IMG/VR virus record: IMGVR_UViG_3300045836_000008
Direction: 5' to 3' (one strand)
DNA length: 64,000 nt
DNA from: a virus
Lineage: Duplodnaviria > Heunggongvirae > Uroviricota > Caudoviricetes
The notes under the pieces are model-generated. The model did no database searches and had not been told where the DNA came from. It saw nothing but the letters and a program-made list of their open reading frames with translations. A program made the position numbers and the translations under genes. Position 1 is the stretch's first letter. Each line of letters opens with the position of its first letter. Below, one piece after another: positions 6,454 through 64,000 of this stretch.

Positions 6454-7626
6454 ATGTCTATCCTATCCACTGTCGAAAACGCAATCACTTCACACATTCC
6501 GAATCTCGGAAATCTGAAGGGCACTGCCACGTCCAATGTTGACAAGTTCAAGACACCCGTCGCGGCATCGCAGGATCGAAGCATCGGCAACTTCATGTAC
6601 CCTTCGAACCTGACGGTCGATCCCGATGAACAACATTGGGTGACGTTCTATATCAACGTCCGTGGCAAGTCGAAGATCGCGCAAGACAAGTCTAAACTCG
6701 TCACACCGGGACAGGCCGTTCCGCTGAATGGCGAGAATCGCATCGACCCGGCGCTGATGGCACAGGGCAACGATGTTGCTGGCGCTGTTGCTGGCGCAAA
6801 AAAGGCCGTAGGCGCGCTTGACAAGTACAACATAGGCCGTAAGGTTGGTGCGATCAGCCAAGCCCGTTCTGGCGGCTCTAAATCGGGCCTTGGGGCATCC
6901 GCAATCACTTACGGTCTGGCGGCTGTTGGTGGTGCTGTTGGTGGTGCTGTTGCAACCGACTTTCTGGTTAAACCCGATGTGACCTACCGACTGAAGGATT
7001 GCATCTCACTGCATGTATCACAGTCGCCGTCAGCGCACTACAGCGCGGACTATGACATCGTGAACATGGGGTCTTTGCAGGGCTTCTTTGACGGGTCGTC
7101 ATCGGCAGTGGACGGCGCTGAAAGCATGAAGATGGGACTGGACCAGTTCAAGGAGTTCGCGCGGGCGGCTGCATTCAACGCTGCTTCGAAGGACGACTCT
7201 CTTTCTGCTAGGATGGGTGCAGTAGCAAAGCAGTCATTGAACCCGTACCGCGAAGTGCTATTCAAGCAGGTTGGCTATCGTCGTTTCGGCTTCGACTACC
7301 GGTTCCTGCCAAAGAGTCAAGCCGAGACGGATCAGGTGCAGAAGATCATTCAGACCTTCAAATATCACATGCACCCTGAACTGTCGAATCAAGGTCTGTT
7401 CTACATTCACCCTTCTGAGTTCAACATTCAGTATTACTACAAGGGTAAAGAGAACAATTACTTCAACAAAATCTCAACATGCGCGCTGGTCGATATGCAC
7501 GTCCAGTATGGTCCGCAAGAACAGTTCTCGTCATTCGCAGATGGCGCACCGACCGAAATTTCGTTGCACCTTGTATTCCAAGAACTCGAAACGCTGACCA
7601 AAGAACGCATTCTGAAAGGCTACTAA
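6454..7626 (+). CDS. gp48: Baseplate tail-tube cap (T4 gp48-like)
   Basis: NPYREVLFKQVGYRRFGFDYRFLPKS, IIQTFKYHMHP, FQELETLTK. Confidence 0.85.
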   Translation: MSILSTVENAITSHIPNLGNLKGTATSNVDKFKTPVAASQDRSIGNFMYPSNLTVDPDEQHWVTFYINVRGKSKIAQDKSKLVTPGQAVPLNGENRIDPALMAQGNDVAGAVAGAKKAVGALDKYNIGRKVGAISQARSGGSKSGLGASAITYGLAAVGGAVGGAVATDFLVKPDVTYRLKDCISLHVSQSPSAHYSADYDIVNMGSLQGFFDGSSSAVDGAESMKMGLDQFKEFARAAAFNAASKDDSLSARMGAVAKQSLNPYREVLFKQVGYRRFGFDYRFLPKSQAETDQVQKIIQTFKYHMHPELSNQGLFYIHPSEFNIQYYYKGKENNYFNKISTCALVDMHVQYGPQEQFSSFADGAPTEISLHLVFQELETLTKERILKGY

Positions 7627-7880
7627 TGAAACAAGTCCTGTACTTTTCCGCACCGTGGTGTGCGCCGTGTCAGTCGTTTGCCCCGCAGTTCGCACAGGTG
7701 ATGGCCGACATCCAAAACGTGTCGTATGAGAAGGTCAACATCGACCAAGACTTCGAGAAGGCACGTGCGTATGGCGTGCGTGCTATCCCGACCATCGTGA
7801 TTCTTGAAGACGACAAAGAGCTTGCACGGCTTGCTGGCGCGAACGTCAATAAAGCAACGCTTGAACAGAAACTAAGCTAA
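7626..7880 (+). CDS. Thioredoxin-like protein
   Basis: LYFSAPWCAPCQ active site (WCxxC) and YGVRAIPT cis-Pro motif; start ATG 7626 coupled by TAATG. Confidence 0.9.
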   Translation: MKQVLYFSAPWCAPCQSFAPQFAQVMADIQNVSYEKVNIDQDFEKARAYGVRAIPTIVILEDDKELARLAGANVNKATLEQKLS

Positions 7881-7881
7881 C

Positions 7882-8391
7882 ATGACTACAGCCTACTTCG
7901 ATCAGTTCCCCAAGGTCTACTACACGTTCGACAACATCACTGCCACGTTGGTTACGAACTTCATGGCACGTGTGCAGATTTCGGATGCACTGAAGTCGAA
8001 CGTTGTGCTGTACAGCCCCTACACCATCATTGATGGCGAGACACCGGAGATGGTAGCGGATAAGATGTATGGTGATCCTTCGCTTCATTGGGTCATTCTT
8101 CTGACGAACGAAATCATCGATCCGCGCTACGATTGGTGTCTCTCGCAACAACACCTGTATTCGTATGTTCAACAGACCTATGGCAGCGATCCATCACAGG
8201 TCTACGGCACGCATCACTACGTGGACCCGAACAGCGGCTTGATCGTTGATTCGAACTTCCCCGGCGCAGTGTCGGTGTCGAACTTCGAGTACGAAGATCA
8301 GTTGAACGAAAAGAAGCGAATCATCAAGATTCTGAACCCGTCTCTATTGAACGAGTTCATCACCGAATTTAAGAACGCGATGGCAGCATGA
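7882..8391 (+). CDS. gp53: Baseplate wedge subunit
   Basis: YFDQFPKVYY, GETPEMVADKMYGDPSLHWVILLTNEIIDP, NEKKRIIKIL. Confidence 0.92.
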   Translation: MTTAYFDQFPKVYYTFDNITATLVTNFMARVQISDALKSNVVLYSPYTIIDGETPEMVADKMYGDPSLHWVILLTNEIIDPRYDWCLSQQHLYSYVQQTYGSDPSQVYGTHHYVDPNSGLIVDSNFPGAVSVSNFEYEDQLNEKKRIIKILNPSLLNEFITEFKNAMAA

Positions 8392-9008
8392 AATCACTAA
8401 AGCAATTCATCACCGAACTAGACGCCGTTTGCGAAGCTACTGACACGTCATACCGTGGCGAACATGAATCACCGGGTCCGGGTTCCGGTTCCCCGCTACA
8501 TGACCTGAAGGGCACGTATGACGATGACTTCTATGGCCCGCAAGGTGTGCGGATGTATGGCGATGGTTCGCACTACGACCACGAATCCCATGCAGCTATC
8601 GCACGCGTGCGCAACCGACCCAACGCATCGGTGAAAATCTATCGCGCGGTCCCACATGAACCGACGCATGCCGAGAAGTTGAACGCAGCATACGATGCAC
8701 AGAAGCACTACATGAAGACCGGCAAGCTGAAGAACATCGGCCACGGCGTTGACAACTACGACAAGCTGCACGCCCACATCGAACATCTCGAAAAGAATCC
8801 GCCAAAGGAAGGCTCTGAACCGCCGAAGGCCAAGATCAATCCGGGCGATTGGGTCAGTGTGTCGAAGACCTACGTCCATGAACACGGTCGCGATAATCTG
8901 AAGGGTAAGTACAAGGTATTGTCCAAGACCGTGCGTGCATCGGAAGTCTATACGGATGGTAACTCGATCCACGAACAGGGCTATCACCCGAAGGAAAAGA
9001 CCAAGTGA
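8388..9008 (+). CDS. Putative head-internal protein with a possible R-S-E type ADP-ribosyltransferase-like domain
   Basis: N-terminal MKSLKQFITE resembles the T4 internal-protein capsid targeting sequence; IYRAVP ... GDWVSVSK ... GNSIHEQGY suggests R/S/E motifs. Confidence 0.55.
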   Translation: MKSLKQFITELDAVCEATDTSYRGEHESPGPGSGSPLHDLKGTYDDDFYGPQGVRMYGDGSHYDHESHAAIARVRNRPNASVKIYRAVPHEPTHAEKLNAAYDAQKHYMKTGKLKNIGHGVDNYDKLHAHIEHLEKNPPKEGSEPPKAKINPGDWVSVSKTYVHEHGRDNLKGKYKVLSKTVRASEVYTDGNSIHEQGYHPKEKTK

Positions 9009-9667
9009 AGACGCTATCTCAGTTCATCGCAGAAGAAGCGGCAAGCCATCCGATGATCGAAGTCGATGGCAAGATGCAGCATCGCCACGATAGCGAAGGC
9101 AAACCGATCCATCCGACCGACGAAGGTATTCGTAACTTCCATCGCTGGTTCGTCGGTTCGCATGCGGTTGATAAGCATGGCCGACCACAAGCGTTCTATC
9201 ACGGCACGGTCCACGACATCACGCACTTCGATGGTGACAAGGCACGCGGCAATGAACACTACGGCACATCGAAGGGTACGCACTACTTCAGCGATTCGCC
9301 GCACAACGCCAGCACATACGCGGGCGCTCGCACGGACATGACAGGTCGCGTCACACACGCATCCGGCGCGAACGTCAACAAGGTCTATCTGCGCATGGCG
9401 AATCCGTTGAAGGTCGATGCGAAGGGCAACAACTGGCGCGAAGTTCCGTTCAAGGGCGATCACGTGACGACCGATGACATCGTGGACCACGCGAAGAGTC
9501 AAGGCCACGATGGCGCGATCATCAAGAACGTGGTCGATACCGCTGGTGAACACAAGAAGAAGCAGACGACAGTCGCGGTCTATCACCCGACGCAAATCAA
9601 GTCTGCTACAGGCAATAACGGTGATTTCCACATCATGTCGAATCACATGGGTGAGTCAACAGAATAA
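9005..9667 (+). CDS. ART-PolyVal family ADP-ribosyltransferase-like protein, putative head-internal protein
   Basis: FHRWFVGSHAVDKHGRPQAFYHGT, YFSDS...ASTYA, VYLRMANP, GHDGAII, TQIKSATGNNGDF; N-terminal MKTLSQFIAEE. Confidence 0.75.
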   Translation: MKTLSQFIAEEAASHPMIEVDGKMQHRHDSEGKPIHPTDEGIRNFHRWFVGSHAVDKHGRPQAFYHGTVHDITHFDGDKARGNEHYGTSKGTHYFSDSPHNASTYAGARTDMTGRVTHASGANVNKVYLRMANPLKVDAKGNNWREVPFKGDHVTTDDIVDHAKSQGHDGAIIKNVVDTAGEHKKKQTTVAVYHPTQIKSATGNNGDFHIMSNHMGESTE

Positions 9668-11040
9668 TGGCAAATACAATCAATAACGGCATCCGTAATG
9701 CGGGCGATGTCTCGGTCAACGAAGTCACGTTGATCTGCACGAACGGCACACAGATTGACTTGATGCCGTTTATGGTTGAACTGAACATCACCGAAGACAT
9801 CTTCTCAACGGCCATGTATGGCAACATCATGGTCGCTGATGCCATTGGCATCGTAGAGAACGGCCCGATTGTCGGGGAAGAGTACCTACGCGTGAACGTG
9901 AACACGCCGGGTATGGAATCGAAAATCTACAAGACGTTCAGGGTGTATAGCATCTCGGATCGCACTGTCGTTACTGACGACAAGACGCAAGTGTTCACAC
10001 TGCACTTCTGTTCGCCGGAAGTCTTCGTGGACACCTATGCGAAAATCTTCAAGACGTTCCAAGGGAAGGTGTCCGATGTCGCAGCGTCGATCTATCAGAA
10101 CTACCTTCAGACATCGCGCAACATCATCGTCAACCCGGAAACCAAACAGTTCGTTGATTCGGATGACGTAACATCGATGACGATCCTGAACGAGACGGAC
10201 AATCAGGTGAAGTTCACGTGTCCGGGTTGGGGCGCAATGAAGACCCTAAGCTGGCTCGCATCAAAGGGACTGGCGACAGGTACAGGCACGTCCGACAACC
10301 TGTTCTACGAGTCGTCACAGGGCTTCTATTGGGGTTCTGTCAGCAAGATCATCCAGACCTTCGTGAACAACAAGACGGTCGCAGCAGAGTTCTACTATCT
10401 GCCGAACACGACACGCATCCACGAAGGCCCGGTCGCGATCAATGGTGTTCAGTACACCGTACCAAATCTGAACAAGGGCTACAAGCTGATTCAGGACTTC
10501 CGCATCGATGACACGTTCAATACGCTGAAGTCGAATCAGAACGGCTACTACGCGAACCAAGTGCTGACGGTGGACCTGACGAACAAATCGTTCAAGTACA
10601 ACAACTACGATTATGTGTCGAACTTCGGGAAGTATCCGCACATGGATAAATACCCGCCGTTCACGACGACGCAGTTCCGCAACCCTTCGATGGCGACGCA
10701 AGTGGCCTACCAGACACCGGGTCTGTATGACAATGTGAGTGGGAATATCAGCGAGAAGATCGCAGACATCAAGCAGAACCGTTTGTCGATGCTGGCTGGT
10801 CTGTCGAACATCAAGATTGAAGGCACTGTCGCTGGACGGACAGACTTCGAAGTGGGAAGTGTGGTCTATTTCGGAATGCCAAAGATGGGTCCGAAAGACG
10901 GCACTGACAAGGCCGAAGAGTTCGATGAATATCTCTCGGGACTTTGGCTTGTCAGTTGTGTTCGCCACAAGATCAACTTGCAGCGGCATGACATGATCCT
11001 TGAAATGGTCAAGGATTCATTCGATACGCAGATTCACTAA
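9667..11040 (+). CDS. Baseplate hub protein (gp27/GpD-like)
   Basis: ELNITEDIFSTAMYGNIMVAD, FFE-like LFYESSQGFYW, YLSGLWLVSCVRH; located just before the PAAR gene. Confidence 0.7.
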   Translation: MANTINNGIRNAGDVSVNEVTLICTNGTQIDLMPFMVELNITEDIFSTAMYGNIMVADAIGIVENGPIVGEEYLRVNVNTPGMESKIYKTFRVYSISDRTVVTDDKTQVFTLHFCSPEVFVDTYAKIFKTFQGKVSDVAASIYQNYLQTSRNIIVNPETKQFVDSDDVTSMTILNETDNQVKFTCPGWGAMKTLSWLASKGLATGTGTSDNLFYESSQGFYWGSVSKIIQTFVNNKTVAAEFYYLPNTTRIHEGPVAINGVQYTVPNLNKGYKLIQDFRIDDTFNTLKSNQNGYYANQVLTVDLTNKSFKYNNYDYVSNFGKYPHMDKYPPFTTTQFRNPSMATQVAYQTPGLYDNVSGNISEKIADIKQNRLSMLAGLSNIKIEGTVAGRTDFEVGSVVYFGMPKMGPKDGTDKAEEFDEYLSGLWLVSCVRHKINLQRHDMILEMVKDSFDTQIH

Positions 11041-11048
11041 GGAAAAAC

Positions 11049-11303
11049 ATGACACGCATCTGTCGGCTAAACGACACGCACTCGCATGGCGGAAACATCA
11101 CCACTGCGAGTGCAGATTGCTTTCTCGGTAACGAACCCATCGCGCGACATGGCGATCAGATTTACTGCAATCAGCACGGAGTGCAGACCATCGTTGGCAC
11201 GGAGAACTACATCCACATCAACAATTCCGAAATCGCACTAGAAGGCGATGTATGCTCTTGCGGCGCTACTCTGATTGCGTCGTTTGATGGTGTGTCTGCC
11301 TAA
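11049..11303 (+). CDS. PAAR-repeat spike tip protein (gp5.4-like)
   Basis: RLNDTHSHGG, PIARHGDQIYCNQHG, IALEGDVCSCGATLI. Confidence 0.9.
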   Translation: MTRICRLNDTHSHGGNITTASADCFLGNEPIARHGDQIYCNQHGVQTIVGTENYIHINNSEIALEGDVCSCGATLIASFDGVSA

Positions 11304-34956: not shown

Positions 34957-37900
34957 ATGTCAGCCGAACTTTCAACATTCAACGCTGCGCCGTACTTTGA
35001 TGACTACGACGAAGAGAAGAAGTTCTACAAAATCCTGTTCAAGCCGGGTTACTCGGTACAGGCACGTGAACTGACGCAACTTCAGTCGATTCTTCAAAAG
35101 CAGATTCAGCGTCATGGCGACAACATCTTCAAGGATGGTGCGATGGTCGTGCCCGGTCAAGTATCGGTTGACACGTCCTTCCATTACGTGAAGGTGCAGA
35201 ACACGTACAACAATGGCACACAGGTCGCAAACTACACCGACAATCTGGTTGGTGCGATCCTTGTCGGCCAGACTACGGGTGTCATGGCACAGGTCGTGAT
35301 GGTGATCCACACGAACAGCGTGGACCCGGAAACCATCTATGTGAAGTACACATCGGCTGGCACTGACGGCGTGACGAAGGTCTTTGCGGACAACGAAGTT
35401 TTGATCCCGCAAGACACGTCACTGGCATCGTATGGCCTTCAGGCAATCGCATCGGGTTCGACCGGTGTGGGTTCGGCTGCATCCGTGAACAAGGGTGTGT
35501 ACTACATCGGCGGCTACTTCTGCTTGGTCGAACCGCAGACGATCATCCTTGACAAGTACACGAACAGCCCGTCATACAGCGTGGGCGTGAATGTCACGTC
35601 TGGCGCTGTCACGTCTGATGACGATGCGTCGCTGCTGGACAATGCCCTTGGTACGTACAACTACAGTGCGCCGGGTGCAGATCGTATGCAAATCGAATTG
35701 ACGCTGGACAAGCGTGCAATCGGTGCGACCAATACGGCCAACTTCGTGCAACTGTTCCAAGTTGTTGATGGCGTGATTCAGACGATGGTCGTGGACACGG
35801 CATACAACACCATCGCTGACACGATGGCACAACGCACCTACGAACAAGCCGGTGACTACACTGTTACACCGGCTACGCTCGATGTGCGTGAACACCGTAA
35901 CAACAATCGCGGCAACTGGAAGGCCAACACGACCTATGCAGTGGGTGACGTGGTGGTGTCGGGTTCGAACACCTATGTGGCTACGGTCGCGGGTGTGTCG
36001 GGTTCGACGGGTCCGAATGTGACGACTGGTACGCAAGTCGATGGTCAAGTCACGTGGACGTTCAATGCAAACCCATCGTACAACCGTGGTGTGTACACGC
36101 CTGAACAGGGCGGTGACGCAACCATGCTGGCGCTCGGTCTTGAACCGCTGACGGCCTATGTTCGCGGCTACCGTTTGAACAAGGTGTCGGTCGATTGGCT
36201 GTCAGTTCCGAAGGCACGTGATACGCAGTACAACGAATCGTCACACATCACGACGACCGTGGGTAACTACGTCCTTGTGACGAACGTGAACGGCATTCCG
36301 AAGATCGACCAGAATGCAACCGTGAACCTGTACGACCAGATGACGGTCACGCCGGGTGTGCAATCGGTTGGCAACCTTGTCGGTACGGCCCGCGCACGTG
36401 CATTCCAGTATGTGTCTGGCACGATTGGTACGCAGACCGCAGTGTATCTGCTGGCACTGTTCGACATCAAGATGAACAGCGGCAAGAACTTCAACACGAA
36501 CGTGAAGCAGTTCTTCATCAACTATGGTTCGACGGTCCTGAACTTCAGTGCAGACATTCAGCCGGTCACGACGCAACTGACGGGTTCCCTGTCGGCATCG
36601 TCAAGCACGACCGTGACTGGTAACGGCACGCTGTTCCAATCGCAACTGGTGGTTGGTGACTACTTCGTGACGGCTGGCGGTGTTAGCCGTGTGACGGCCA
36701 TTGCATCGAACACTTCGCTGACTGTCGCTACCGCAGTGACGATCACGAACAGTGCTGGTTGGGTGTATGACACGAAGCTGCTTGAACCGCAGAACAGCCC
36801 GAACGTGTTCAAGATGCCGAACTATGCGATCCAATCGGTTCGCTCGTCGGATGGCACGATTGGCACTTCGTACACGGTCCAACAGCGCTTCACTGGCACG
36901 GCCAATGCGTCGGGTGTCCTGACTATCGCAACAAGCGGTACGGATACGTTCGCATCGACGGCGCTGACATCGAACTACACGTGCGTGGACAACACGACTG
37001 GCGCGATCCTGTCACCGGCATCGATCACCCTGAACACGCCATCGAACAGCCAAGCTACGCTGACCTTCACTGCGTCACAAGCTTCGCACTCGATCAGCGT
37101 GATTGCAGCAGTGAACCGCCAAGGTTCGGGCACTGAGAAGATCAAGACCCTGAACACCGGTACGCTGGTGCTGACGACTGCGGCAACGGCTGGTGCATCG
37201 ACAATCACGCTTCCACAAGCTGACGGCTATGCACTCGTCTCGGTGATGCAGGACAGCGGCACGTTCGCTGCACCTACGGGCCAGTACACGAAGGACGTTA
37301 CGTCGAACTACACGTTCAATGACGGTCAGACGGACTCGTACTACGGTCTGGCATCGATCAGCCTGTCATCGACCGGTGTGGCTGCAACTGCGCCGATCAC
37401 GATCACGTACCAATACTTCTCGCACAGTTCGACGGGTGACTACTTCACGGTCAACTCGTACCTGTCAACGATGCAGTATCAGGACATCCCGTACTTCAAC
37501 GGTATGGCACTGCGTGACTGTATCGACTTCCGCCCGCGCATCTCGACCAATGGTCAAGACTTCGTGTCATCGGGTGCGATTGTGAACGGTGTGCCGGTGC
37601 GTGGCTACGATGTCATCACGAACTACACGAACTACCTTGGCCGTCAAGATAAGCTTGCACTGGCTTCGGATGGTACGTTCTTTGACGTGAAGGGCGTGTC
37701 GTCACTGACGCCAGCACTGCCGGATGATCCGTCAACGGCAATGGTCCTGTTCACGGTCAATCTGGAACCGTACACGTTTGGTACGAAGACGACCAACGTT
37801 GCAGTGACTACGATTGACAACAAGCGCTACACGATGCGTGATATTGGCGCATTGGACAAGCGTATTGCCAACCTTGAATACTACACGTCTCTGTCGCTGC

Positions 37901-40900
37901 TTGAACAGCAAACCACGTCGATGAACATCACCGATTCGACAGGTCTGACGCGTTACCAGAACGGTTTCATTGTGGACTCGTTCAATGGTCACGGTGTTGG
38001 CAACCCGTCGAACCCGGACTACATGTGTTCTATCGACATGACGAACAACATGCTGCGTCCGTTCTTCTCGATGGAGAACATCAACCTGATCGAGAACAAC
38101 ACCAACAACAGCCAACGTGCTGCGGCTGGTTATCAGGTGACGGGCGATGTGGTGACACTGCCGTACAGCCAAGTGTCGTTCATCTCGCAGCCGTATGCGT
38201 CGGAATACGTGAACGTCAACCCGTTCGCGGTCTATGCCTTCATCGGCCACACGGACCTTACACCGTCTTCGGACGAATGGTTCGATACGTACCAACTGCC
38301 AGACATCGTGACGAACGTGGACGGCAACTTCAACACCATTTCGGCACTCGCTGCGGCATCTGGTGTTCTGGGTACGGTGTGGAATGCTTGGCAGACCCAA
38401 TGGACCGGTGCAAGCACGACTAGCACGACGACCTACAATTGGGGCGTTCACACCAACACCTATTCGGTGAACGGTGGTCCGCTGCAACTGCGTCCTGCTT
38501 CGCAAGACAACCTTGGCAATGGTACGGGTCAAGCACGTACTCTGGTGACAGAGACGACCGCTACTACTGTCGGACAATCGCGTACTGGTATCAACACGCA
38601 GATCGTCCCACAGATCACCAACACGGTGACGGCAGACAACGTTGTGGCACAGGCGGTGATCCCGTACATTCGTGCCCGCAATGTGCAGTTCATGTCGCGT
38701 GGCCTGAAGCCGAACACGACGTTCTACCCGTTCTTTGATGGCACATCGGTTTCGGCCTATGTGACACCTTCGACGGCACTGAAGTACACGGCGGTATCGG
38801 GTTTCACGTCCGTGTTTGACTATCAGTCGAATGTGGGCGGTCTGGCCGATCAGTTCGCACGCCAGATTACCGGCAACACGAACAATGCACTCGATTCGGG
38901 TGACGTGGTGTATGTGGTGCAACGTGGTTCGACTAGCTACACCTTGACGAACAGCCCTGCTACGGCGGTGGTTGGTCTACAAGAGAACCATGCTGACGGT
39001 ACGCTTCAGTTGCAAGTCCTGAACATCCTTGGTTCATTCCAAGCTGGTGACGTGATTCAAGGTACGTTGTCGAACAGCCGTGGTACGTTGACGGTTGCCC
39101 CGACAGTCAGCAATGAAGGCGGCGCTCTGGTGTCGAACTTCAACGGTGACATCGTTGGCCTGTTCCAAATCCCTGATGACAATTCGCTGAAGTTCCGCAC
39201 TGGCACTCGCGAATTCAAGGTGACGGACAGTTCGACCAATGGTACGGATTCCACATCGTATGCAGCAGTGCAGTACACGGCAACCGGTATCCTTCAAACG
39301 AAGCAAGCGTATGTGACTTCGACCCGCAATGCGGAAATCGTTCAGACGCAAGTTTCGGATACCCAAACAGTTGTGCAGACTTCAACTTCGGTTGTGTCTG
39401 ACACTGGCTGGTGGGACCCACTTGCAGAAACGTTCCTTGTGAACAGCACTGACGGTGCGTTCCTGACTTCGGTTGACCTGTACTTCCAATCGAAGGACCA
39501 GAACATTCCGGTGCAGGTTGAAATCCGTGATGTGGTCAATGGCTATCCGGGTACGAATGTGTTGCCGTTCTCGCACACCGTGCTGACACCGGACAAGGTG
39601 AATGTGTCGCAAGACGCGAGCGTGGCAACCCGCTTCACCTTCGAATCGCCGGTCTACGTGAACGATGGCACTAGCTATGCGCTGGTGGTGATGTCCGATT
39701 CCAATGCGTACAACGTGTGGATCGCGACGCTCGGTGAGAAGGTTGTGAACTCCGACAGCTACATCTCGGAACAGCCTTACACTGGCGTGATGTTCGAATC
39801 GCAGAATGCTTCAACGTGGACTGCGAACCAGAACAGCGACATCAAGTTCACGATCAACCGTGCGAAGTTCGTGACGGGTCAGTATGGTGAAGTTGAGTTC
39901 GTGAACGCGCAGCCTGACCTTCACGCACTGATTGCAACACCGTTCCAGACGGCAAGCGGTTCAACGCTGGTTCGTGTGTTCGATCAGAACCACGGCAACC
40001 CGAACGGATCGTCAGTGACGATCAGCGGTGTGACGGCGGCAGTGAACGGCATCCCGGCTGCACAGTTGAACGGTACGTTCGTGATTAGCAATGTCGAATT
40101 CGACAGCTACACGATCAGCGTGTCATCGGCGGCAACATCGTCGGGTCTGGGCGGCAATGCTGGTGTGTATGCGACGGCTAACGTCACGTATGACACGCTG
40201 CAACCGGTGGTTCAAGCCCAAAGCTTCACGGATACGACTACGGCGTGGTTCGTGAAGACGACAACGGGCCAAACCCCGCGTGGTGGTACGGAAACCCCGT
40301 ATGTGTTGGATACGTCCTACTGGCCGGTCGTGGTGAACGACAACAACACGATTGGGAACACGTGTCTGGTAGCATCGGCACCGAACCAATCTGCGTCGAT
40401 CCTGAATGGTTCGAAGTCACTCTGGCTGAAGGGTCAGATGTACACGACGAACGATGCAGTTTCGCCGTTCATCGACATGCACCGTCTGTCAGCCATCGCG
40501 GTTCGCAACCGTATCGGTACGCCGACCCTTGCGAACACCAACGTGGCAGCGCTGGACGATGTGACCGTGGTCAGTGGCAACACCAACCTGTCGTTCTCGG
40601 GCAACCAGATCACGACAACGGACGCGACAACGAAGCAAGCACTACTGACTATCGTTCCGGGTACGTATGTTGTCATCTCGGGTACGGCGTCGAACAACGG
40701 CACGTTCCTGACCCAAGCTGTCGCAAGTGATGGTAGTTCGGTGACGTTTGCCAACACCTTCACGACGCAAGCAACAGGTACGGCAACGACGCTGGTGATG
40801 CACAGCCAGTTCCTTGACGAGACTGCACCGGCTGGTTCGACAACGATCAGCAAGTACGTGTCCAAGAAGGTGAACTTCTCCAACACATCGACGTATCTCC

Positions 40901-41181
40901 GGGTACAGATGGCGTTGGCAGTTCCGCCAGCGGGCAATGTGCTGGTGTACTACAAGGCGAACCCGGCTGGCCTGACGACTGGCTTTGACGCTCTTCCGTA
41001 TGTGCTGTTGAACCCTGACAGCGCGATCAAGAAGACGACCAACCAGACGTTCACGGACACGTCATACAGCCTGACCGGCATGGCAGCGTTCGATGCGATC
41101 CAAGTCAAGATCGTGATGCAGTCCACGGACTCTTCACAAGTACCACTGGTCAAAGACCTTCGCATCATCGCTTGCGCATAA
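34957..41181 (+). CDS. Large virion structural protein (VrlC/DUF4815-like)
   Basis: APYFDDYDEEKKFYKILFKPGYSVQARELTQLQSILQ, APGADR, KRYTMRDIGALDKRIANLEYYTSLSLLE, WWDPLAETF, PLVKDLRIIA. Confidence 0.85.
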   Translation: MSAELSTFNAAPYFDDYDEEKKFYKILFKPGYSVQARELTQLQSILQKQIQRHGDNIFKDGAMVVPGQVSVDTSFHYVKVQNTYNNGTQVANYTDNLVGAILVGQTTGVMAQVVMVIHTNSVDPETIYVKYTSAGTDGVTKVFADNEVLIPQDTSLASYGLQAIASGSTGVGSAASVNKGVYYIGGYFCLVEPQTIILDKYTNSPSYSVGVNVTSGAVTSDDDASLLDNALGTYNYSAPGADRMQIELTLDKRAIGATNTANFVQLFQVVDGVIQTMVVDTAYNTIADTMAQRTYEQAGDYTVTPATLDVREHRNNNRGNWKANTTYAVGDVVVSGSNTYVATVAGVSGSTGPNVTTGTQVDGQVTWTFNANPSYNRGVYTPEQGGDATMLALGLEPLTAYVRGYRLNKVSVDWLSVPKARDTQYNESSHITTTVGNYVLVTNVNGIPKIDQNATVNLYDQMTVTPGVQSVGNLVGTARARAFQYVSGTIGTQTAVYLLALFDIKMNSGKNFNTNVKQFFINYGSTVLNFSADIQPVTTQLTGSLSASSSTTVTGNGTLFQSQLVVGDYFVTAGGVSRVTAIASNTSLTVATAVTITNSAGWVYDTKLLEPQNSPNVFKMPNYAIQSVRSSDGTIGTSYTVQQRFTGTANASGVLTIATSGTDTFASTALTSNYTCVDNTTGAILSPASITLNTPSNSQATLTFTASQASHSISVIAAVNRQGSGTEKIKTLNTGTLVLTTAATAGASTITLPQADGYALVSVMQDSGTFAAPTGQYTKDVTSNYTFNDGQTDSYYGLASISLSSTGVAATAPITITYQYFSHSSTGDYFTVNSYLSTMQYQDIPYFNGMALRDCIDFRPRISTNGQDFVSSGAIVNGVPVRGYDVITNYTNYLGRQDKLALASDGTFFDVKGVSSLTPALPDDPSTAMVLFTVNLEPYTFGTKTTNVAVTTIDNKRYTMRDIGALDKRIANLEYYTSLSLLEQQTTSMNITDSTGLTRYQNGFIVDSFNGHGVGNPSNPDYMCSIDMTNNMLRPFFSMENINLIENNTNNSQRAAAGYQVTGDVVTLPYSQVSFISQPYASEYVNVNPFAVYAFIGHTDLTPSSDEWFDTYQLPDIVTNVDGNFNTISALAAASGVLGTVWNAWQTQWTGASTTSTTTYNWGVHTNTYSVNGGPLQLRPASQDNLGNGTGQARTLVTETTATTVGQSRTGINTQIVPQITNTVTADNVVAQAVIPYIRARNVQFMSRGLKPNTTFYPFFDGTSVSAYVTPSTALKYTAVSGFTSVFDYQSNVGGLADQFARQITGNTNNALDSGDVVYVVQRGSTSYTLTNSPATAVVGLQENHADGTLQLQVLNILGSFQAGDVIQGTLSNSRGTLTVAPTVSNEGGALVSNFNGDIVGLFQIPDDNSLKFRTGTREFKVTDSSTNGTDSTSYAAVQYTATGILQTKQAYVTSTRNAEIVQTQVSDTQTVVQTSTSVVSDTGWWDPLAETFLVNSTDGAFLTSVDLYFQSKDQNIPVQVEIRDVVNGYPGTNVLPFSHTVLTPDKVNVSQDASVATRFTFESPVYVNDGTSYALVVMSDSNAYNVWIATLGEKVVNSDSYISEQPYTGVMFESQNASTWTANQNSDIKFTINRAKFVTGQYGEVEFVNAQPDLHALIATPFQTASGSTLVRVFDQNHGNPNGSSVTISGVTAAVNGIPAAQLNGTFVISNVEFDSYTISVSSAATSSGLGGNAGVYATANVTYDTLQPVVQAQSFTDTTTAWFVKTTTGQTPRGGTETPYVLDTSYWPVVVNDNNTIGNTCLVASAPNQSASILNGSKSLWLKGQMYTTNDAVSPFIDMHRLSAIAVRNRIGTPTLANTNVAALDDVTVVSGNTNLSFSGNQITTTDATTKQALLTIVPGTYVVISGTASNNGTFLTQAVASDGSSVTFANTFTTQATGTATTLVMHSQFLDETAPAGSTTISKYVSKKVNFSNTSTYLRVQMALAVPPAGNVLVYYKANPAGLTTGFDALPYVLLNPDSAIKKTTNQTFTDTSYSLTGMAAFDAIQVKIVMQSTDSSQVPLVKDLRIIACA

Positions 41182-43549: not shown

Positions 43550-46500
43550 ATGGCAGTTCTGATTAAACGCTCGTCTGTTGCTGGCAAAGTCCCGGCAACG
43601 ACTGACCTGAACTATGGCGAACTTGCGCTGAACTCGCATGACGGTCGCCTGTTCCTGAAGGCCAACAACGGGTCTGGTGATGCGATCATCGAAGTCACTT
43701 CGGTTACGTCGCTTCTGAACAAGACCGTGACGGCCAACGTCACCCTGACTGCACTCGAATATTCGAACGCGATGATCGTGTTCTCGGGCGCACTCACGGC
43801 CAACACTGTTGTCACTGTCCCCAATACCCCACACTCGTTCATTGTTGTCAACAAGACGACAGGGAACTATTCGCTTACGCTTCAAAGCCAAGGTCAAACA
43901 CCTTCGGTCGTGGTGACGCAAGGTACGGCAGAATCGCTGCTTTGTGACACGACTGGTGTGTATGCAACAGCGGCAACAACTGGTGTTGAATTCGCCAAGG
44001 TGATCCCGGTTACGGCCAACGTGACCGCAGACATCACCTATGCTGGCGCACTGCTGCTTGTGACCACGGCTGGTGTAACGATCACGATGCCAAAGGCCAA
44101 CACGTACCAAGCCGGTACGGGCTTCGGTATCCTGAACGTGTCGGGTGGTTCAGTCACGGTTGCAGTGCAGTCCGGTGATTCGGGCGTACTGACATTCCCG
44201 CTGACGGTTCAGAACAATGATTCGTACTACCTTGCATCTGACAACAGCACGAAGTGGCATTGTGTCTGGTACAGCAATCCGCAATCACCTACCTTTGGCG
44301 CACTGACGGCATCATCGCTGACATCGACGGGCAACCTGTCGGTCACTGGTACATCGACCTTCACTGGTGCGGCCACATTCAACAACACCAACACCAACTT
44401 GGGTGCAGTGGGTGCGACGTTGAACATCGGTTCACTGGCATCGGCGGGTACGAGTTCGATCCTGTTCCGTTCGTCGGGCCTGAATTCGACCTATGACAGT
44501 GAAATCTATGGCACTGGTGGTACGGCATCACCGGGCAACGGCCAGATCAACTACACGGCGGGTTCGCACGTATTTCGCATTGGTAGCACGGCCAAACTGT
44601 CGATCACGTCTTCGGGTGTGACACTGCTGAATACAACAACGGACAGCGGTTCAGGCGCAGTGCTTCAGGTCAATGGCGACATCGAAACTCAGTGGGGTTT
44701 GATTCGTTCTACGACCTATTCAGCGCCGAGTTCAATCGTCCTGCGTCAGTCGGATGGTGTACCGGGTTCGGCTACGGCTACACAGAACGGCGATCAGGTT
44801 TCGACGGTCGTCAGCTATGCCTACGATGGCGCAGCATTCCGCAACATGGCATCGGTGGATGTGTACGCTGAAGCCAATGTGACGAACACTTCTGCACCGG
44901 GCAACATCCGCTTCTACACGACGCCTAGCGGTTCGATCAACAAGTCGGAACGCATGCGGATCACTGCACGCGGCGGCATTCTTATCGGTACGACTACGGA
45001 TGATGGCGCATCGGCCATGATCGTGACGGGTACGGCCACGTTCAATAACACCATTGTTGCAGGTTCGAACATCACGTCGAATGCTGGCAAGGTGACGGGT
45101 AATAGTTCGAATGGCGCACTGACGGCATCGAATGGTGGTGGTGCGGGTCAGACTTCAATGATCCTGAACCGTGCGGGTGCGCCGACCGATCAAAAGCAAT
45201 GGGAAGTGATGCAGGACGGTTCGGGTACGTTTGTTCTCCGAACGGTCAATGATGCCTACAGCGCGTCACAGTACGCGATGCAAGTCACGCGTGCGAGTTC
45301 GTACACGCTTGGCTATATGTCCCTGATGTCACAAGGTGGACACGTGCTGATCGGTGGTACGACTGATAACGGCACGGACGAACTGCAAGTCACTGGCACG
45401 ATCCAGACATCGGGCGGCATTGTCTTCCCGGATGGCACGAAGCAGACCACGGCCAACGGTGTCACTGCGCCTACGTCACAGGTCTACACACCGGCTGCGA
45501 ACGCCACGTCGTTTCAACCAACGGGCGGCTACACGGTTCCGTTCGTTCAGGTCTTCAAGAACAACGGACGCCTGATTCCGAACGTAGACTTCACTGCACC
45601 GGATGGGGTGAACATCAACCTGACGGTCGCGGCTACGGGTCGTGATCGTTATGAAGTCCTGACGAGTGTCATCTACAGCCCGTCAACGGTATTTGCGCCT
45701 ACATCCACGGTGTACAACCTGTCGGTCGGTGCAACGACGATCAACACGTCGAACCTGAACACGATCATGTGGGTGTATCAGAACAATGACCGTCTGATCC
45801 CGACACAGGACTTCACATACAACACGTCAACTGGTGTCATCACGTTGACCAATGCTGTTACATCGGCAACGGACAACTACGAAGTCATCGCATTCCAGCC
45901 GTTCGCGATCAATGGCATGTTGCCGTTCGTGCAAAGTGGTTCGTACAGCTTGGCATCGGGTCAAATCCCGGTGTACAACGGTTCGACATGGACGAACAAG
46001 CCACTGGCATTGTCTACCGGTACGAACGTCACACTCGATCCGTCGAACAAGTCTGCATCGGTCACACTGTCGAACACGAACAGCACGGCCACGTTCGGTT
46101 CGGGTCAGTCGATGGTGATTGGCAACACTGGTGTGAACTCGGGCAAGTATTACTTCGAAGTCACGTTCACGTCTGGTACGAACTCGGGTAACGCGGCTGT
46201 CGGTCTGGTTCCCAAGACTGAAACCCTGACGGCACAGATCGGTTACAACGATCCGAGTGCGAACTATTCGGTCGGCTGCTTCCAGAACTCGGGCAACATC
46301 TACAAGAACGGCGGTACGAGTGCGGGCAGTGCGTCGGCATTCAACACGGCTGGCAACGTGGTTCAAGTCGCCTACGATGCGGGCAACCGTCTGGTGTGGT
46401 TCGCGGTCAATGGCGGTAACTGGAACGGTAGTGCTGCTAACAGTCCTGCTACTGGTGTGGGCGGTATCGCAGTTGGTGGTACGGCTGCAATGTTCCCGGC

Positions 46501-47812
46501 CATTGGTACAGACAGTGCATCGGTCTGGACATCGAACTTCAACACGGCATTCGCGTACTCGATCCCGTCTGGTTTCTCTGCTTGGTACAACGCATCACCG
46601 GCCAACAACGTGACGCCGACTGACGTTGCAGTGCAGTTCCCGACTAGCGGTCAATTGCTGGCCTACAACGGCACGCAATGGGCGAACCGTGTGTTGACAC
46701 CATCGGACCTGAACACGGCCCTTGGAAGCTCTGCAATCGCGTCCAATGGTAACGGCTATCTGCAACTGAACAACGGTCTGTACATGCCTGACGGGTACAT
46801 TCAGGTCGTGACACCGCAAGGTCGTAATCGCGTGACCAATGGCGGCATGTTGGTCGCACAGCGCGGTACGGGCACATACACGAATGGTGTCTCGGGTTAC
46901 AGCGGTTGCGACATGATGAACGCCAACAACTCTGCTGGTGGCACGTTCACACAGGCACAGGGCACGATCACCTATGGTGGTATTGCACGCAAGGCTGTTG
47001 TACAGACGGTCACGGCAACGGGTTCGTCATTCAGCACGGCGGGTAACTTGTGGCTTGGTGTTCAGACGCGTTTCGAAGGTCAACAAGTGTTCGACATGAT
47101 TGGCGGCTATGCAACCCTGTCGTTCCTGTTCAACACGAACGTGACGGGTACATATTCGGTGCAACTGTTCGACAACACTGGCAACAACAGCTATGTGGCA
47201 ACGTTCAGTGCAACGGCAAACACACCGCAACGTGTGGTGCTTCCGGTCCTGATGTCGGCATCGTTGGGAATCCCGAACAGTTCGGCATTGGGTCTGTTGT
47301 GTACGATTGGTTGCGTGAGTGGTACGACCTATCAGACATCGACGCTGAACGCGTGGCAGACAGGCAACCTGATTTCGGCCAACACGGCAACGAACTGGAC
47401 CGGTGTGGTGAACAACTTCATCGCAGTGGGTGAACTTCAGTTGGAACCGGGCAAGATCAACACGCCGTTCGAACGGCTGCATATTGCGACGGTCACGGAA
47501 CAATGCCAACGCTACTACGAACTGATCTACTTCGGCGGTTTCCTTGTGTACAACCAAGGACCAACATCGGCACTGTTCACGGTCCCGTTCAATACGACCA
47601 AGCGTTCGACAACCACGTTCTCATACAACATTGCCAGCATCGGGACCGAAGTCACGATCCCGGCTGGCAGCATCACTGCACTGGCACTGGACCGCAATGC
47701 GGTGAACCATGCGCAAATCCAGATTCAGGGTAGCGGTGGTCAGAGTTCCGGGGTGGTTGGCCGGATCATCGGTAGTAATACGCAGTACATGGCGTTCTCT
47801 GCGGAACTGTAA
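43550..47812 (+). CDS. Long tail fibre with SPRY-like and C-terminal lectin/CBM-like domains
   Basis: LIKRSSVAGKVP..TDLNYGELALN N-terminus; repeated TTDxG...LQVxG knobs; KYYFEV...VQVAYDAGNRLVWFAVNG; RNRVTNGGM...TPFER...CQRYYE. Confidence 0.8.
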   Translation: MAVLIKRSSVAGKVPATTDLNYGELALNSHDGRLFLKANNGSGDAIIEVTSVTSLLNKTVTANVTLTALEYSNAMIVFSGALTANTVVTVPNTPHSFIVVNKTTGNYSLTLQSQGQTPSVVVTQGTAESLLCDTTGVYATAATTGVEFAKVIPVTANVTADITYAGALLLVTTAGVTITMPKANTYQAGTGFGILNVSGGSVTVAVQSGDSGVLTFPLTVQNNDSYYLASDNSTKWHCVWYSNPQSPTFGALTASSLTSTGNLSVTGTSTFTGAATFNNTNTNLGAVGATLNIGSLASAGTSSILFRSSGLNSTYDSEIYGTGGTASPGNGQINYTAGSHVFRIGSTAKLSITSSGVTLLNTTTDSGSGAVLQVNGDIETQWGLIRSTTYSAPSSIVLRQSDGVPGSATATQNGDQVSTVVSYAYDGAAFRNMASVDVYAEANVTNTSAPGNIRFYTTPSGSINKSERMRITARGGILIGTTTDDGASAMIVTGTATFNNTIVAGSNITSNAGKVTGNSSNGALTASNGGGAGQTSMILNRAGAPTDQKQWEVMQDGSGTFVLRTVNDAYSASQYAMQVTRASSYTLGYMSLMSQGGHVLIGGTTDNGTDELQVTGTIQTSGGIVFPDGTKQTTANGVTAPTSQVYTPAANATSFQPTGGYTVPFVQVFKNNGRLIPNVDFTAPDGVNINLTVAATGRDRYEVLTSVIYSPSTVFAPTSTVYNLSVGATTINTSNLNTIMWVYQNNDRLIPTQDFTYNTSTGVITLTNAVTSATDNYEVIAFQPFAINGMLPFVQSGSYSLASGQIPVYNGSTWTNKPLALSTGTNVTLDPSNKSASVTLSNTNSTATFGSGQSMVIGNTGVNSGKYYFEVTFTSGTNSGNAAVGLVPKTETLTAQIGYNDPSANYSVGCFQNSGNIYKNGGTSAGSASAFNTAGNVVQVAYDAGNRLVWFAVNGGNWNGSAANSPATGVGGIAVGGTAAMFPAIGTDSASVWTSNFNTAFAYSIPSGFSAWYNASPANNVTPTDVAVQFPTSGQLLAYNGTQWANRVLTPSDLNTALGSSAIASNGNGYLQLNNGLYMPDGYIQVVTPQGRNRVTNGGMLVAQRGTGTYTNGVSGYSGCDMMNANNSAGGTFTQAQGTITYGGIARKAVVQTVTATGSSFSTAGNLWLGVQTRFEGQQVFDMIGGYATLSFLFNTNVTGTYSVQLFDNTGNNSYVATFSATANTPQRVVLPVLMSASLGIPNSSALGLLCTIGCVSGTTYQTSTLNAWQTGNLISANTATNWTGVVNNFIAVGELQLEPGKINTPFERLHIATVTEQCQRYYELIYFGGFLVYNQGPTSALFTVPFNTTKRSTTTFSYNIASIGTEVTIPAGSITALALDRNAVNHAQIQIQGSGGQSSGVVGRIIGSNTQYMAFSAEL

Positions 47813-62134: not shown

Positions 62135-62452
62135 ATGGAAGACATTAAGAAAGGCGCATTCCACGCGTGGCTAGGTAAGTCGGAAAGCGAACCCATCACT
62201 GAAGAAGACATTCAGAAGGGTCTTGCTTCCGATGACGAACACGTTCGCAAGATGGCTGAGTTCGCCAAGAACTCGAAGGAATGGCATCACGAAAGCGTGA
62301 ATGAAAATTCGTTCATCGGCACGATCCTATCGAAAGATTTCAGTGCCGCTGGCGATATGTTCAAGAAGATGATGTCGGAAAAGATGACGGTCGCGCTCCA
62401 AGCACGTCGCATCGAACTCGCACAATCGCTCTACAAAAACAAGGCCGAATAA
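62135..62452 (+). CDS. Prohead core protein (gp67-like C-terminal part) with an N-terminal extra module
   Basis: Follows the portal gene; C-terminal FKKMMSEKMTVALQARRIELAQSLY resembles small core proteins. Confidence 0.55.
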   Translation: MEDIKKGAFHAWLGKSESEPITEEDIQKGLASDDEHVRKMAEFAKNSKEWHHESVNENSFIGTILSKDFSAAGDMFKKMMSEKMTVALQARRIELAQSLYKNKAE

Positions 62453-63027
62453 TGAACTTCGCAGAATTCCGCAAACAGAACGGCGAACAGGCACCACACA
62501 CGCCAGAAAAGACGGAACCTGCTGATTCACAAGTCACTACTGGCGAGACTGAGAAGGAACACCAGAACAAAGACCTTCTGAAAATGAAGGATGGCTCTGT
62601 CTGGATTCCACGTGGTCCCAAGATTCAAGCGCCGGGTCTGACTACTGAATCGAAGAACAAGGTTCACCACAAGGTCAAGATTCACTTCGCATCGGGCAAG
62701 ACGGAAGAACGTCTGATCGATGACGATGAACTTGGCGTCATCAAGCGCAACGCAAAGGTCACGAAGGTGATGCACCTTGGCCGTTCGAAGGTCAATGGCG
62801 AATTGCTTGAATACTCGCTCGATGAAGCCAACAACGCAGAAACCGTGTTCCACCACAAGGACGGTCGCAAGGCTGTAATCAACAGCTACAAGTATGCGGA
62901 CCCGTCACTTGGTACGGACCACTACGTACACATCACCAACTCTCGCGCCACGGTGTTTGATGGCGACAAGGGTCTGGAAAAAGCACACAAGCTGCTGAAG
63001 AAGCTTGGTTTCCAAAAGGCTGAATAA
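62452..63027 (+). CDS. Putative prohead-internal protein
   Basis: MNFAEFRK N-terminus and several L/I-x-x-E sites; lies in the core-gene cluster. Confidence 0.55.
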   Translation: MNFAEFRKQNGEQAPHTPEKTEPADSQVTTGETEKEHQNKDLLKMKDGSVWIPRGPKIQAPGLTTESKNKVHHKVKIHFASGKTEERLIDDDELGVIKRNAKVTKVMHLGRSKVNGELLEYSLDEANNAETVFHHKDGRKAVINSYKYADPSLGTDHYVHITNSRATVFDGDKGLEKAHKLLKKLGFQKAE

Positions 63028-63029
63028 CA

Positions 63030-63416
63030 ATGACGGCACTCGTTCAAACAGTCCTGAAGAATACGCACACAGAAGCCGTGGTCAAGATCACCGGCACTGG
63101 TACGGCTTCAATTCCGCTGTCGTCACTGGCCTTCGGTGACGAGACGTACACCGCAGCTAAAGCTTCAGTCGAGATTCGCAAGGTCTGGGTTTCGCAACCC
63201 CCAACACAGGAAGTCACCGTGACCCGCAATTCGGTTGCCGTACTTCAGTTGTTCGGTAGTGCTGAACTTTCTGATGACCAGTACAAGATCAGCGACCAAG
63301 CATCACAAGACATCTCGGTTGTCACGGCTGGTGATGGCACTGTCATTCTCACCCTGCGCAAGTCCGGTGGATTCGACTATCCGTACCGCGCTGATAACCT
63401 GACACAAGGTGCATAA
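63030..63416 (+). CDS. Conserved head-region protein upstream of gp21
   Basis: Beta-rich 128-aa ORF in the T4-like core cluster. Confidence 0.7.
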   Translation: MTALVQTVLKNTHTEAVVKITGTGTASIPLSSLAFGDETYTAAKASVEIRKVWVSQPPTQEVTVTRNSVAVLQLFGSAELSDDQYKISDQASQDISVVTAGDGTVILTLRKSGGFDYPYRADNLTQGA

Positions 63417-63418
63417 GC

Positions 63419-64000
63419 ATGAAGCTGATTACTGAACTCTACGATGAAGTAGAACTGCTGACCGAAGGTACTGGCGCTGACAAGCAACTGTACATCCAAG
63501 GTATCTTCGCACAGTCGAACATCGTCAACCGTAACAAGCGGAACTACCCGAAAGCACACATGGAATCGGCAATCCAGAAGTATGTCGATGGCTATGTGTC
63601 CAAGAATCGCGCTCTCGGTGAACTCAATCACCCGCAACGCATGCAGGTTGATCCTGAACGTGCTTGCATGTTGATTAAAGAACTCACATGGGACGGCAAC
63701 AACGTCATCGGTAAGGCCAAGGTTCTTTCTGAAGGTGTTGGCAAGGTCGTGCGTGGTCTGATTCTTGACGGCGTAAATATTGGTGTATCGACACGCGGCG
63801 GCGCTTCTGTATCCCTGCGTGAAGGTGTCACCTACGTTGGTCCTGACTTGACGTTCTCTGCTATCGATGTCGTTACTGATCCGAGCGGTCCTGACTGCTT
63901 CGTGAACGGCATCATGGAAGGCGTTGAGTGGATTTGCGAATCCGGTGTCTGGAAGATGGAAAAGATCGAACAGGTACAGGAAATCATCAAAGAGACGCCT
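63419..64000 (+). CDS. gp21: Prohead core scaffold protease, truncated at the window edge
   Basis: Translated by hand: MKLITE...LYIQGIFAQSNIVNRNKRNYP...ALGELNHP...GVSTRG...DVVTDPSGPDCFVNGIME. Confidence 0.95.
   Translation, partial: MKLITELYDEVELLTEGTGADKQLYIQGIFAQSNIVNRNKRNYPKAHMESAIQKYVDGYVSKNRALGELNHPQRMQVDPERACMLIKELTWDGNNVIGKAKVLSEGVGKVVRGLILDGVNIGVSTRGGASVSLREGVTYVGPDLTFSAIDVVTDPSGPDCFVNGIMEGVEWICESGVWKMEKIEQVQEIIKETP

Follow-up and report, generated by a model that had tools for sequence, protein, structure and literature searches.

Two adjoining genes with leaders resembling the T4 capsid targeting sequence and probable ADP-ribosyltransferase folds in the baseplate operon of an uncultured T4-like phage

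The two genes and their immediate neighbours

The 64,000-nucleotide stretch of viral DNA in IMG/VR record IMGVR_UViG_3300045836_000008 (here called the window, at its full length) comes from an uncultured T4-like myophage and is 53.5% G+C. Within its baseplate operon lie two adjoining genes, referred to below as gene 1 and gene 2, whose products both begin with a leader peptide resembling the capsid targeting sequence (CTS) of phage T4. Gene 2 encodes a stand-alone protein of the ART-PolyVal family of ADP-ribosyltransferases (ARTs), and gene 1 encodes a protein without a Pfam family, the core of which probably has an ART fold. The pair and the genes that touch it are arranged as follows.

7882..8391, + strand: gp53 baseplate wedge gene (PF11246, 5.9e-15; phrog_232, 2.9e-49)
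8388..9008, + strand: gene 1, 206 residues, ATG start; leader-tagged, with a predicted divergent ART-fold core and no Pfam family (phrog_2579, 6.6e-33)
9005..9667, + strand: gene 2, 220 residues, GTG start; leader-tagged stand-alone ART-PolyVal (PF18760, 4.2e-22)
9667..11040, + strand: conserved tail/baseplate protein, 457 residues (phrog_350, 7.5e-72), syntenic in the related contigs L003, L005 and L006

Stop and start codons overlap at each of the three junctions, as ATGA between gp53 and gene 1, GTGA between gene 1 and gene 2, and TAATG between gene 2 and the tail gene. The two genes are translationally coupled to one another and to both neighbours. A preliminary description of this DNA, made from its letters, had reported two coupled genes within a baseplate cluster, and both open reading frames (ORFs) are indeed as it drew them, in a gp48-gp53-PAAR-gp5 context. 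The short motifs that it quoted are also present, in gene 1 as IYRAVP (residues 84-89), WVSVS (155-159) and IHEQGY (194-199), and in gene 2 as FYHGT (64-68), YFS (94-96) and KSATGNNGDF (199-208).

Gene 2, a stand-alone ART-PolyVal protein

Of the two proteins, the product of gene 2 is the more readily classified. Its match to Pfam PF18760 (ART-PolyVal) scores 79.9 bits, with a cut-off of 31.2, and spans profile positions 1-140 of 140.

9170..9628, + strand: ART-PolyVal domain of gene 2, residues 56-208 (Pfam envelope), with H66 at 9200-9202 and D169 at 9509-9511

Among the ART models in Pfam this is the only one that gene 2 matches; it does not match the Alt/VIP2 family PF03496. Sequence and profile searches of the PDB returned no match for either protein. 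Exhaustive searching for relatives of gene 2 gave 8,030 clusters; most of the best ones are polyvalent proteins, 1,000-6,000 residues long, in which as many as 21 stretches match. When 614 copies of the domain are aligned, gene 2 is seen to keep all of the family hallmarks: F45/W48/F49, Y65-H66-G67-T68, Y94-F95-S96, A102, Y105 and Y128 in the N-terminal part, and G167-x-D169-G170 and Q197-I-K-S-A...G-N-x-G-x-F in the C-terminal part. Across that alignment H66 is invariant, D169 is nearly so, D178 is conserved, and position 94 is aromatic.

The family is defined by an active-site His on strand 1, a Tyr on strand 2 and an Asp on strand 5 (Iyer et al. 2017, PMC5512222). Residues H66, Y94 and D169 of gene 2 supply this His-Tyr-Asp set, with a presumed placement on the corresponding strands, and the assignment of gene 2 to the H-Y type of ART-PolyVal in the preliminary description is borne out by these residues and by the Pfam score. 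We considered whether gene 2 might be inactive for want of a Glu at the third position of an H-Y-E centre. Thr189 occupies the PARP-type Glu position, which is normal for the family; the idea was rejected because this column is variable among family members (Thr being the commonest residue) and because the family is defined as H-Y-D (PMC5512222).

Gene 1 and its probable fold

Gene 1 matches no Pfam family at E<=1, including ADPrib_exo_Tox and every other ART model, and its sole label is phrog_2579, "ParB C-terminal domain". There are 73 homologues of similar length, and stand-alone minimal forms of 127-147 residues are common. An alignment of 46 sequences shows no variation at Y22, H26, R86, P89 and G153-D-W-V156, and E196, H38, Y44, D47, H166 and others are conserved in at least 90%. 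The features of gene 1 on which the structural argument turns are these.

8643..8645, + strand: Arg86, invariant in the 46-sequence alignment; candidate strand-1 catalytic Arg, equivalent to LT Arg7 judging by alignment ends
8667..8795, + strand: helical-hairpin insert of the model, residues 94-136, missing from the minimal 127-147-residue members
8856..8858, + strand: Ser157 (Ser/Thr in the family), candidate STS-motif position, directly after the invariant G-D-W-V; model strand 155-157, then helix
8973..8975, + strand: Glu196, candidate catalytic Glu, conserved in at least 90% and just before the last strand; LT Glu112 or pertussis toxin S1 Glu129 judging by alignment ends

An AlphaFold2 model of gene 1, built with the family alignment, has a predicted local distance difference test score (pLDDT) of 92.3. 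Full-length fold searches of the PDB, PDB representatives and AlphaFold database (AFDB) clusters gave nothing usable, as the helical insert, taken here as residues 91-146, swamped the matches. Because the insert dominated those searches, an insert-free family member, P0052, was folded in place of the full-length protein (pLDDT 91.4). Its core matches 42 of 48,161 PDB representatives at Z>=2, and nearly all of these belong to the ART superfamily. The best are CNFy domain 4 (Z 4.7; 84 residues aligned, root-mean-square deviation (rmsd) 4.0) and KptA/Tpt1 (Z 4.6; 70 aligned, rmsd 2.8). The toxins matched include TreX, TreTu, Vis, the diphtheria, pertussis and LT toxins, Scabin, C3, ExoS and SdeA, and further matches are to Arr, PARP13/16, ParT, RES toxins, MbcT, Tne2 and Tse6. 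Other kinds of search led to similar places: a shape search of the ESM Atlas with the gene 1 domain found DUF3990 and the PF01129 ART, the named families among its language-model neighbours are ART-PolyVal, PARP and Arr-ms (at about 0.75), and the top structure match in reviewed UniProt is the Arg-specific transferase EFV (E 0.045).

Since the scores of single matches are low, the assignment of gene 1 to the ARTs rests on the near-exclusive hit list taken together with the conserved residues. Comparison with ART structures and their split beta-sheet core, which the preliminary description had called for as a fold check, agreed with its reading as to kind, the few matches being nearly all ARTs, and fell short as to strength (Z <=4.7, Foldseek E >0.01). 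The LT alignment spans model residue 77, paired with chain residue 4, to model residue 140, paired with chain residue 117; if its ends are a fair guide, the family Arg falls on LT Arg7 and the family Glu on LT Glu112. The end of the pertussis toxin S1 alignment would similarly put the family Glu on Glu129. In the gene 1 model, Arg86 ends strand 81-89, W-V-S forms strand 155-157 with a helix next, and Glu196 precedes strand 197-199, a layout that, as modelled, is the one expected for R-S-E enzymes. Gene 1 has the residues of a cholera-toxin-like R-S-E centre, in the form of invariant R86, S/T157 after GDWV, and E196, although the motif around the last is atypical. An ART-superfamily fold is probable for gene 1, and the R-S-E reading first offered from its letters is supported by the confident model, its matches and the conservation of these three positions.

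The I-H-E of gene 1 (residues 194-196, 8967-8975) also fits the L/I-x-E motif of the prohead protease. If accessible, it would offer the protease another place to cut, 10 residues before the C-terminus.

A recurrent pair of domains

Domains related to those of genes 1 and 2 sit elsewhere in polyvalent proteins. In a library of viral structures, the gene 1 domain was found within many large polyvalent and MuF-type proteins, and 11 independent clusters of gene 1-domain fusions carry PF18760: P0014 and P0054, which are of similar length to gene 1, and nine of the 25 longer homologues. Two of the PF18760 fusions also hold NUDIX, and other fusions of the gene 1 domain involve a ParB-like nuclease, GNAT or Arr-ms. 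In 9 of 13 fusion proteins the gene 1 domain lies directly next to ART-PolyVal. ART-PolyVal usually comes first, and the order is reversed twice, matching that in the window. The two domains are a recurrent fused pair, probably a functional one, which other phages make as a single chain within large injected polyvalent proteins and which is split here, each half bearing its own tag. A polyvalent protein holds two to fifteen effector domains per polypeptide (Iyer et al. 2017); each protein here is a single domain with a leader, and their description as stand-alone proteins holds. A predicted complex of mature gene 1 with mature gene 2, modelled with alignments for both, scored 0.01 (mark 0.32), a result with no bearing on binding either way.

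The company that the gene 1 domain keeps is relevant to a different view of it, as a degenerate ART-fold module without enzymatic activity that binds NAD+, ADP-ribose or a target, and that acts as an accessory or specificity domain for neighbouring effectors such as ART-PolyVal, ParB-like nuclease or GNAT. Such a protein might still be packaged. In fusions the domain nearly always adjoins a catalytic domain, its I-H-E is atypical when set beside the usual (E/Q)-x-E, its structural scores are low, and its best structural match, CNFy domain 4, is ART-like with no known activity, all of which would suit a non-enzyme. Set against this, Arg86 is invariant and Glu196 nearly so, both at what would be catalytic positions, and the conserved Y22, H26, H38, Y44, D47 and H166 fit an active site. 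Moreover, the minimal stand-alone forms are common, and gene 1 stands alone at the locus in two relatives that have no ART-PolyVal gene there. We regard a non-enzymatic gene 1 as unlikely, and favour a divergent but active transferase.

A leader of the probable capsid-targeting type

The feature that unites the two proteins is found at their N-termini, and the protease that would act on it is encoded at the far end of the window.

8388..8417, + strand: gene 1 leader, MKSLKQFITE; predicted cut after Glu10 (I-T-E); profile score 19.6 bits
9005..9034, + strand: gene 2 leader, (M)KTLSQFIAE; predicted cut after Glu10 (I-A-E); profile score 21.4 bits; identical to the T4 CTS at 7 of 10 positions
63419..64000, + strand: gp21-type prohead protease, N-terminal 194 residues, the rest lying beyond the window end (phrog_207, head maturation protease, 9.5e-62)

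The T4 CTS reads MKTYQEFIAE (PMC8442874). Its residues 4 and 7 control targeting, residues 8 and 10 control processing, and gp21 cuts after L/I-x-E; the authors of one review propose the CTS as a possible general loading route for proteins of T4-like phages (PMC9026906). Both leaders in the window keep CTS positions 1, 2, 7, 8 and 10, with Thr or Ser at position 3 and Leu at position 4. They follow the T4-type pattern of about ten residues with a hydrophobic or aromatic residue at positions 4 and 7 and an L/I-x-E end, and a phage with such a CTS also needs a gp21-type prohead protease, which the window encodes. The likeness of the N-termini (MKSLKQFITE and (fMet)KTLSQFIAEE) to the CTS, noticed at the outset, is plain, and the L005 orthologue of gene 2 starts MKTFKEFVTEE, with ATG. 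A leader profile was built from 101 distinct leaders. Within the window only gene 2 and gene 1 match it, and the next-best ORF start scores 1.2 bits. The leader match of both genes exceeds chance.

The leader is not peculiar to this phage. IMG/VR was scanned for the pattern M-K-(S/T)-F-x-(Q/E)-F-(I/V/M)-x-E, with the same codons in reversed order as control. The pattern was found at at least 120 loci, compared with 5 for the control. Nearly all of the 130 matches listed have an in-frame stop a few codons upstream, which places them at ORF starts, and the 120 listed tagged ORFs of at least 60 residues fall into 53 unrelated cargo clusters. T4-type gp13-gp21 genes occur at 45 of the 120 short loci listed, and large T4-like contigs have one to three strict-consensus leaders each, with none in the control. 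Some contigs bear two to four tagged genes in a row, and one tagged cargo family (21 members, about 106 residues) sits between the portal and prohead protease genes. T4 keeps prohead-core genes between its portal and protease. Tagged cargo among the matches listed includes homologues of gene 1 (L103) and gene 2 (L118), an S-AdoMet lyase, cytidylyltransferase-like enzymes, a DPBB lytic transglycosylase and Tox-ART-HYD1. Some homologues of genes 1 and 2 bear the tag, others lack it, and others again have a different N-terminal extension attached at that junction; by these comparisons of sequence, the leader is a portable, separable tag. A capsid-targeting role, as first proposed from the N-termini, gains support from the diversity of the cargo, the position of the leaders at true ORF starts, the T4-like contigs in which they are found, and the protease in the window.

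Several tagged loci deserve mention in their own right. S-AdoMet lyase family proteins (PF23780) of T4-like marine contigs carry a CTS-type leader (L052:1441-2151, L020:5266-5835 and about 20 related loci), which, as a reading of sequence, suggests an injected SAM-degrading enzyme. On another T4-like contig (L104:6502-9422, - strand), four successive genes with unrelated bodies start MKTFKQFI-E and lie by tail tube and portal genes, and L115 has three successive tagged genes. A search for further genes with variant leaders in Vibrio phage 1.081.O was fruitless: the sole extra match to the pattern lies out of frame inside a larger ORF and is put down to chance. Two ORFs of the window, 62452-63027 and 63030-63416 (both + strand), lie between the portal and prohead protease genes and have no PHROG matches; the first starts MNFAEFRKQ, which faintly recalls the leader, and contains LLE/LDE sites at residues 118-125. 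T4 has gp67 and gp68 between its portal and prohead protease. A gene 1 homologue in a 34.7-kb circular phage genome (MW202462.1; L002:5686-6600) has about 115 extra N-terminal residues in place of the leader, and the terminase and portal genes follow shortly after it. Similar extensions beginning MPTLADIYS... and MGLLADIFS... recur in P0025, P0026, P0045 and P0046, and an extension of the L002 type may be a different virion-targeting module.

A shared N-terminus could serve other ends, such as translation-initiation context or chaperone or membrane binding, the proteins then acting late in the producing cell, unpackaged, in the manner of T4 ModA and ModB. T4 does have unpackaged ARTs, the leaders vary at positions 4, 5 and 9, and packaging in the present phage is deduced by analogy. 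Nevertheless, the constraint is on the peptide and not on the DNA, since the pattern is kept despite many synonymous and non-synonymous differences between the two leaders. The conserved positions 4, 7, 8 and 10 are those that govern targeting and processing in T4, the leader always ends in a protease motif (I/V/M-x-E), and some tagged cargo families are encoded between portal and protease. We consider this alternative improbable and retain the capsid-targeting reading.

Genomic setting

The gene order of the window is T4-like: gp2, gp4, gp48, thioredoxin, gp53, gene 1, gene 2, the PHROG 350 tail protein, PAAR and gp5, and beyond gp5 come gp6, gp7, gp8, the fibre genes, gp13 to gp20 and, at the window end, the gp21-type protease. 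The remaining genes around the pair are the following.

6454-7626: gp48, baseplate
7626-7880, + strand: thioredoxin (PF00085, 8.7e-18)
11049-11303, + strand: PAAR protein, 84 residues
13658-16786, + strand: gp5-type hub protein, 1,042 residues

The thioredoxin gene between gp48 and gp53 is kept at the same spot in L003, L005 and L006. The gp5-type hub has an OB domain, a VgrG3-like C-terminal part (from precomputed Pfam assignments of its relatives) and an endolysin-like C-terminus, with the PAAR protein encoded separately upstream. Two very long ORFs lie in the fibre region, at 34957-41181 (+ strand; 2,074 residues) and 43550-47812 (+ strand; 1,420 residues).

A megablast search of cultured phages with 10.7 kb of this DNA gave no match. 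The order gp53-gene 1-tail gene is kept in the three relatives just named, with gene 1 identities of 91%, 62% and 60%, which makes gene 1 the constant resident of the locus among four syntenic phages. An ART-PolyVal gene is present there in two of the four, the window and L005. The gene pair is not obligatory, given that two syntenic relatives have no ART-PolyVal gene at the locus. Gene 2 is 86% identical to its L005 orthologue, above any flanking structural gene (56-82%). The T4 late promoter consensus, TATAAATA, has 0 matches across the window, and late expression of the pair is consequently argued from translational coupling only.

The setting would seem to recommend a role at the tail tip or baseplate, in which both proteins are delivered on it like effectors on VgrG/PAAR spikes, or serve as baseplate assembly factors, and never enter the head; they are coupled to gp53 and a tail protein within a baseplate operon, with PAAR and a VgrG-like gp5 hub downstream, but this is the least probable of the alternatives, and a very improbable one, as the same leader begins genes in many other places, some of them between portal and prohead protease (so that gene position does not define the tagged class), the gene 2 leader is identical to the experimentally defined T4 head-targeting signal at positions 1-3 and 7-10, and neither protein resembles any baseplate protein family in Pfam or PHROG searches.

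A model for packaging, processing and injection

We think it likely, taking the evidence as a whole, that genes 1 and 2 encode a tagged pair of ART-fold proteins that are loaded into the head, trimmed, injected, and put to NAD+-dependent modification of the host. On this model, both ART-fold enzymes would be made late, together with baseplate proteins. The leader, by analogy with T4, would dock each protein on the scaffolding core of the prohead through its hydrophobic position 4 and Phe7, and a gp21-type protease would cut after Glu10 of I-x-E, which would leave mature proteins of about 21.9 and 23.2 kDa in the head. The predicted mature N-termini, at residue 11, are LDAVCEATDTSYR for gene 1 and EAASHPMIEVDGK for gene 2. 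Both proteins would then leave the head with the DNA at infection. These steps of packaging, cutting by the head protease and injection with the DNA are probable, by analogy, because both proteins begin with the ten-residue head-loading tag of T4. Once in the cell, the proteins would use NAD+ to modify host macromolecules. Gene 2 would do so as a member of the polyvalent-protein ART family, of the H-Y-D type, and gene 1 through a divergent Arg / Ser-Thr / Glu centre, an activity suggested by the predicted fold and the conserved residues.

Several observations count against this proposal. The two proteins are rich in His and Lys, as had been said of them (His 7.8% and Lys 10.7% for gene 1, His 9.5% and Lys 7.3% for gene 2); their predicted mature forms are near neutral (isoelectric points 7.4 and 6.9), unlike the basic internal proteins of T4. 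Both leaders have Leu at position 4, in contrast to the Tyr of T4 and the Phe of most relatives, and the genes are placed in the baseplate operon and not beside head genes. The closest relative (gene 1 91% identical) and one other do not have the ART-PolyVal gene at the locus. As for gene 1 itself, its structural matches are weak (best Z 4.7, and Foldseek E >0.01 against both PDB and AFDB), its I-H-E has Ile in place of the acidic or amide residue that opens the usual (E/Q)-x-E, and a candidate catalytic Glu within a protease-type I-H-E would need to be protected by folding.

A broader proposal can be framed, which is possible but on present evidence doubtful. Gene 1 would found a widespread, unannotated clade of active phage ARTs (Arg / Ser-Thr / x-x-Glu) that forms a two-step or two-target NAD+-dependent system with ART-PolyVal, and the CTS-type leader would be a general address label for injected payloads. 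If true, genome sequences by themselves would reveal the whole injected payload of uncultured T4-like phages, including ARTs, SAM lyases, nucleotidyltransferases and dozens of unknown proteins.

Proteins injected with phage DNA act ahead of phage gene expression, which makes them prime candidates for counter-defence and host takeover, and they are usually found only through virion proteomics of cultured phages. In this uncultured phage, a short, recognisable tag accompanies two predicted ART-fold proteins, and more than 50 cargo families bear it as well. The analysis also offers a probable fold and a candidate active site for a domain that is common in phages, is missing from Pfam and goes by a misleading PHROG name, and the recurrent fusions tie this domain to ART-PolyVal. 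The packaging of ARTs by myophages has already been put forward in print as a general idea (PMC9503650), and the CTS is textbook T4 biology, so the advance lies in scope and detail and not in kind. In the literature searched there was no publication placing the gene 1 domain in the ART superfamily, and no catalogue of CTS-tagged cargo outside the T-even phages.

Comparison with known systems

On genomic grounds, Iyer et al. (2022) argued for frequent packaging of ARTs into myophage heads, by way of MuF or portal fusion, polyvalent proteins, or a head-gene neighbourhood; that paper does not mention a CTS-type leader (PMC9503650). The best-known case is T4 Alt, a head-packaged, injected ART (PMC9026906, PMC9503650) that loses a 7-residue N-terminal propeptide (PMC9026906). 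Like Alt, the present proteins are ART-fold proteins of a T4-type phage, and they are predicted to travel in its head, to be trimmed by the prohead protease and to be injected; gene 1 has the same Arg/Ser/Glu type of centre. They differ in being much smaller, with no detectable sequence relationship to Alt, and in being two putative enzymes of different clades that bear a leader of the internal-protein type.

The leaders share with the T4 CTS a ten-residue N-terminal tag that begins M-K-T/S, has a hydrophobic residue at position 4, Phe7, Ile8 and Glu10, and ends in L/I-x-E; in both settings the tag is found on unrelated cargo and the phage encodes a gp21-type protease. Unlike the T4 tag, those described here have Leu4 and not Tyr, belong to genes in a baseplate operon, and have a predicted role, and the cargo, near-neutral, enzyme-like and about 22-23 kDa, contrasts with the small basic internal proteins of T4.

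Gene 2 has a full-length ART-PolyVal domain (PF18760; Tox-ART-HYD2 clade; PMC5512222) with the His/Tyr/Asp residues and the Q-I-K-S-A...G-N-x-G-x-F signature. Early injection was predicted for this family (Iyer et al. 2017, PMC5512222). The typical ART-PolyVal is one bead in a polyvalent protein of 1,000-6,000 residues, released by an internal peptidase, whereas gene 2 is a stand-alone protein of 220 residues with a predicted cleavable tag. Gene 1, finally, belongs with phrog_2579 and with unnamed ESM Atlas and BFVD clusters; the PHROG name denotes a position and not a function, and the gene 1 core corresponds to the C-terminal domain of mycobacteriophage ParB-like proteins and of many polyvalent proteins.

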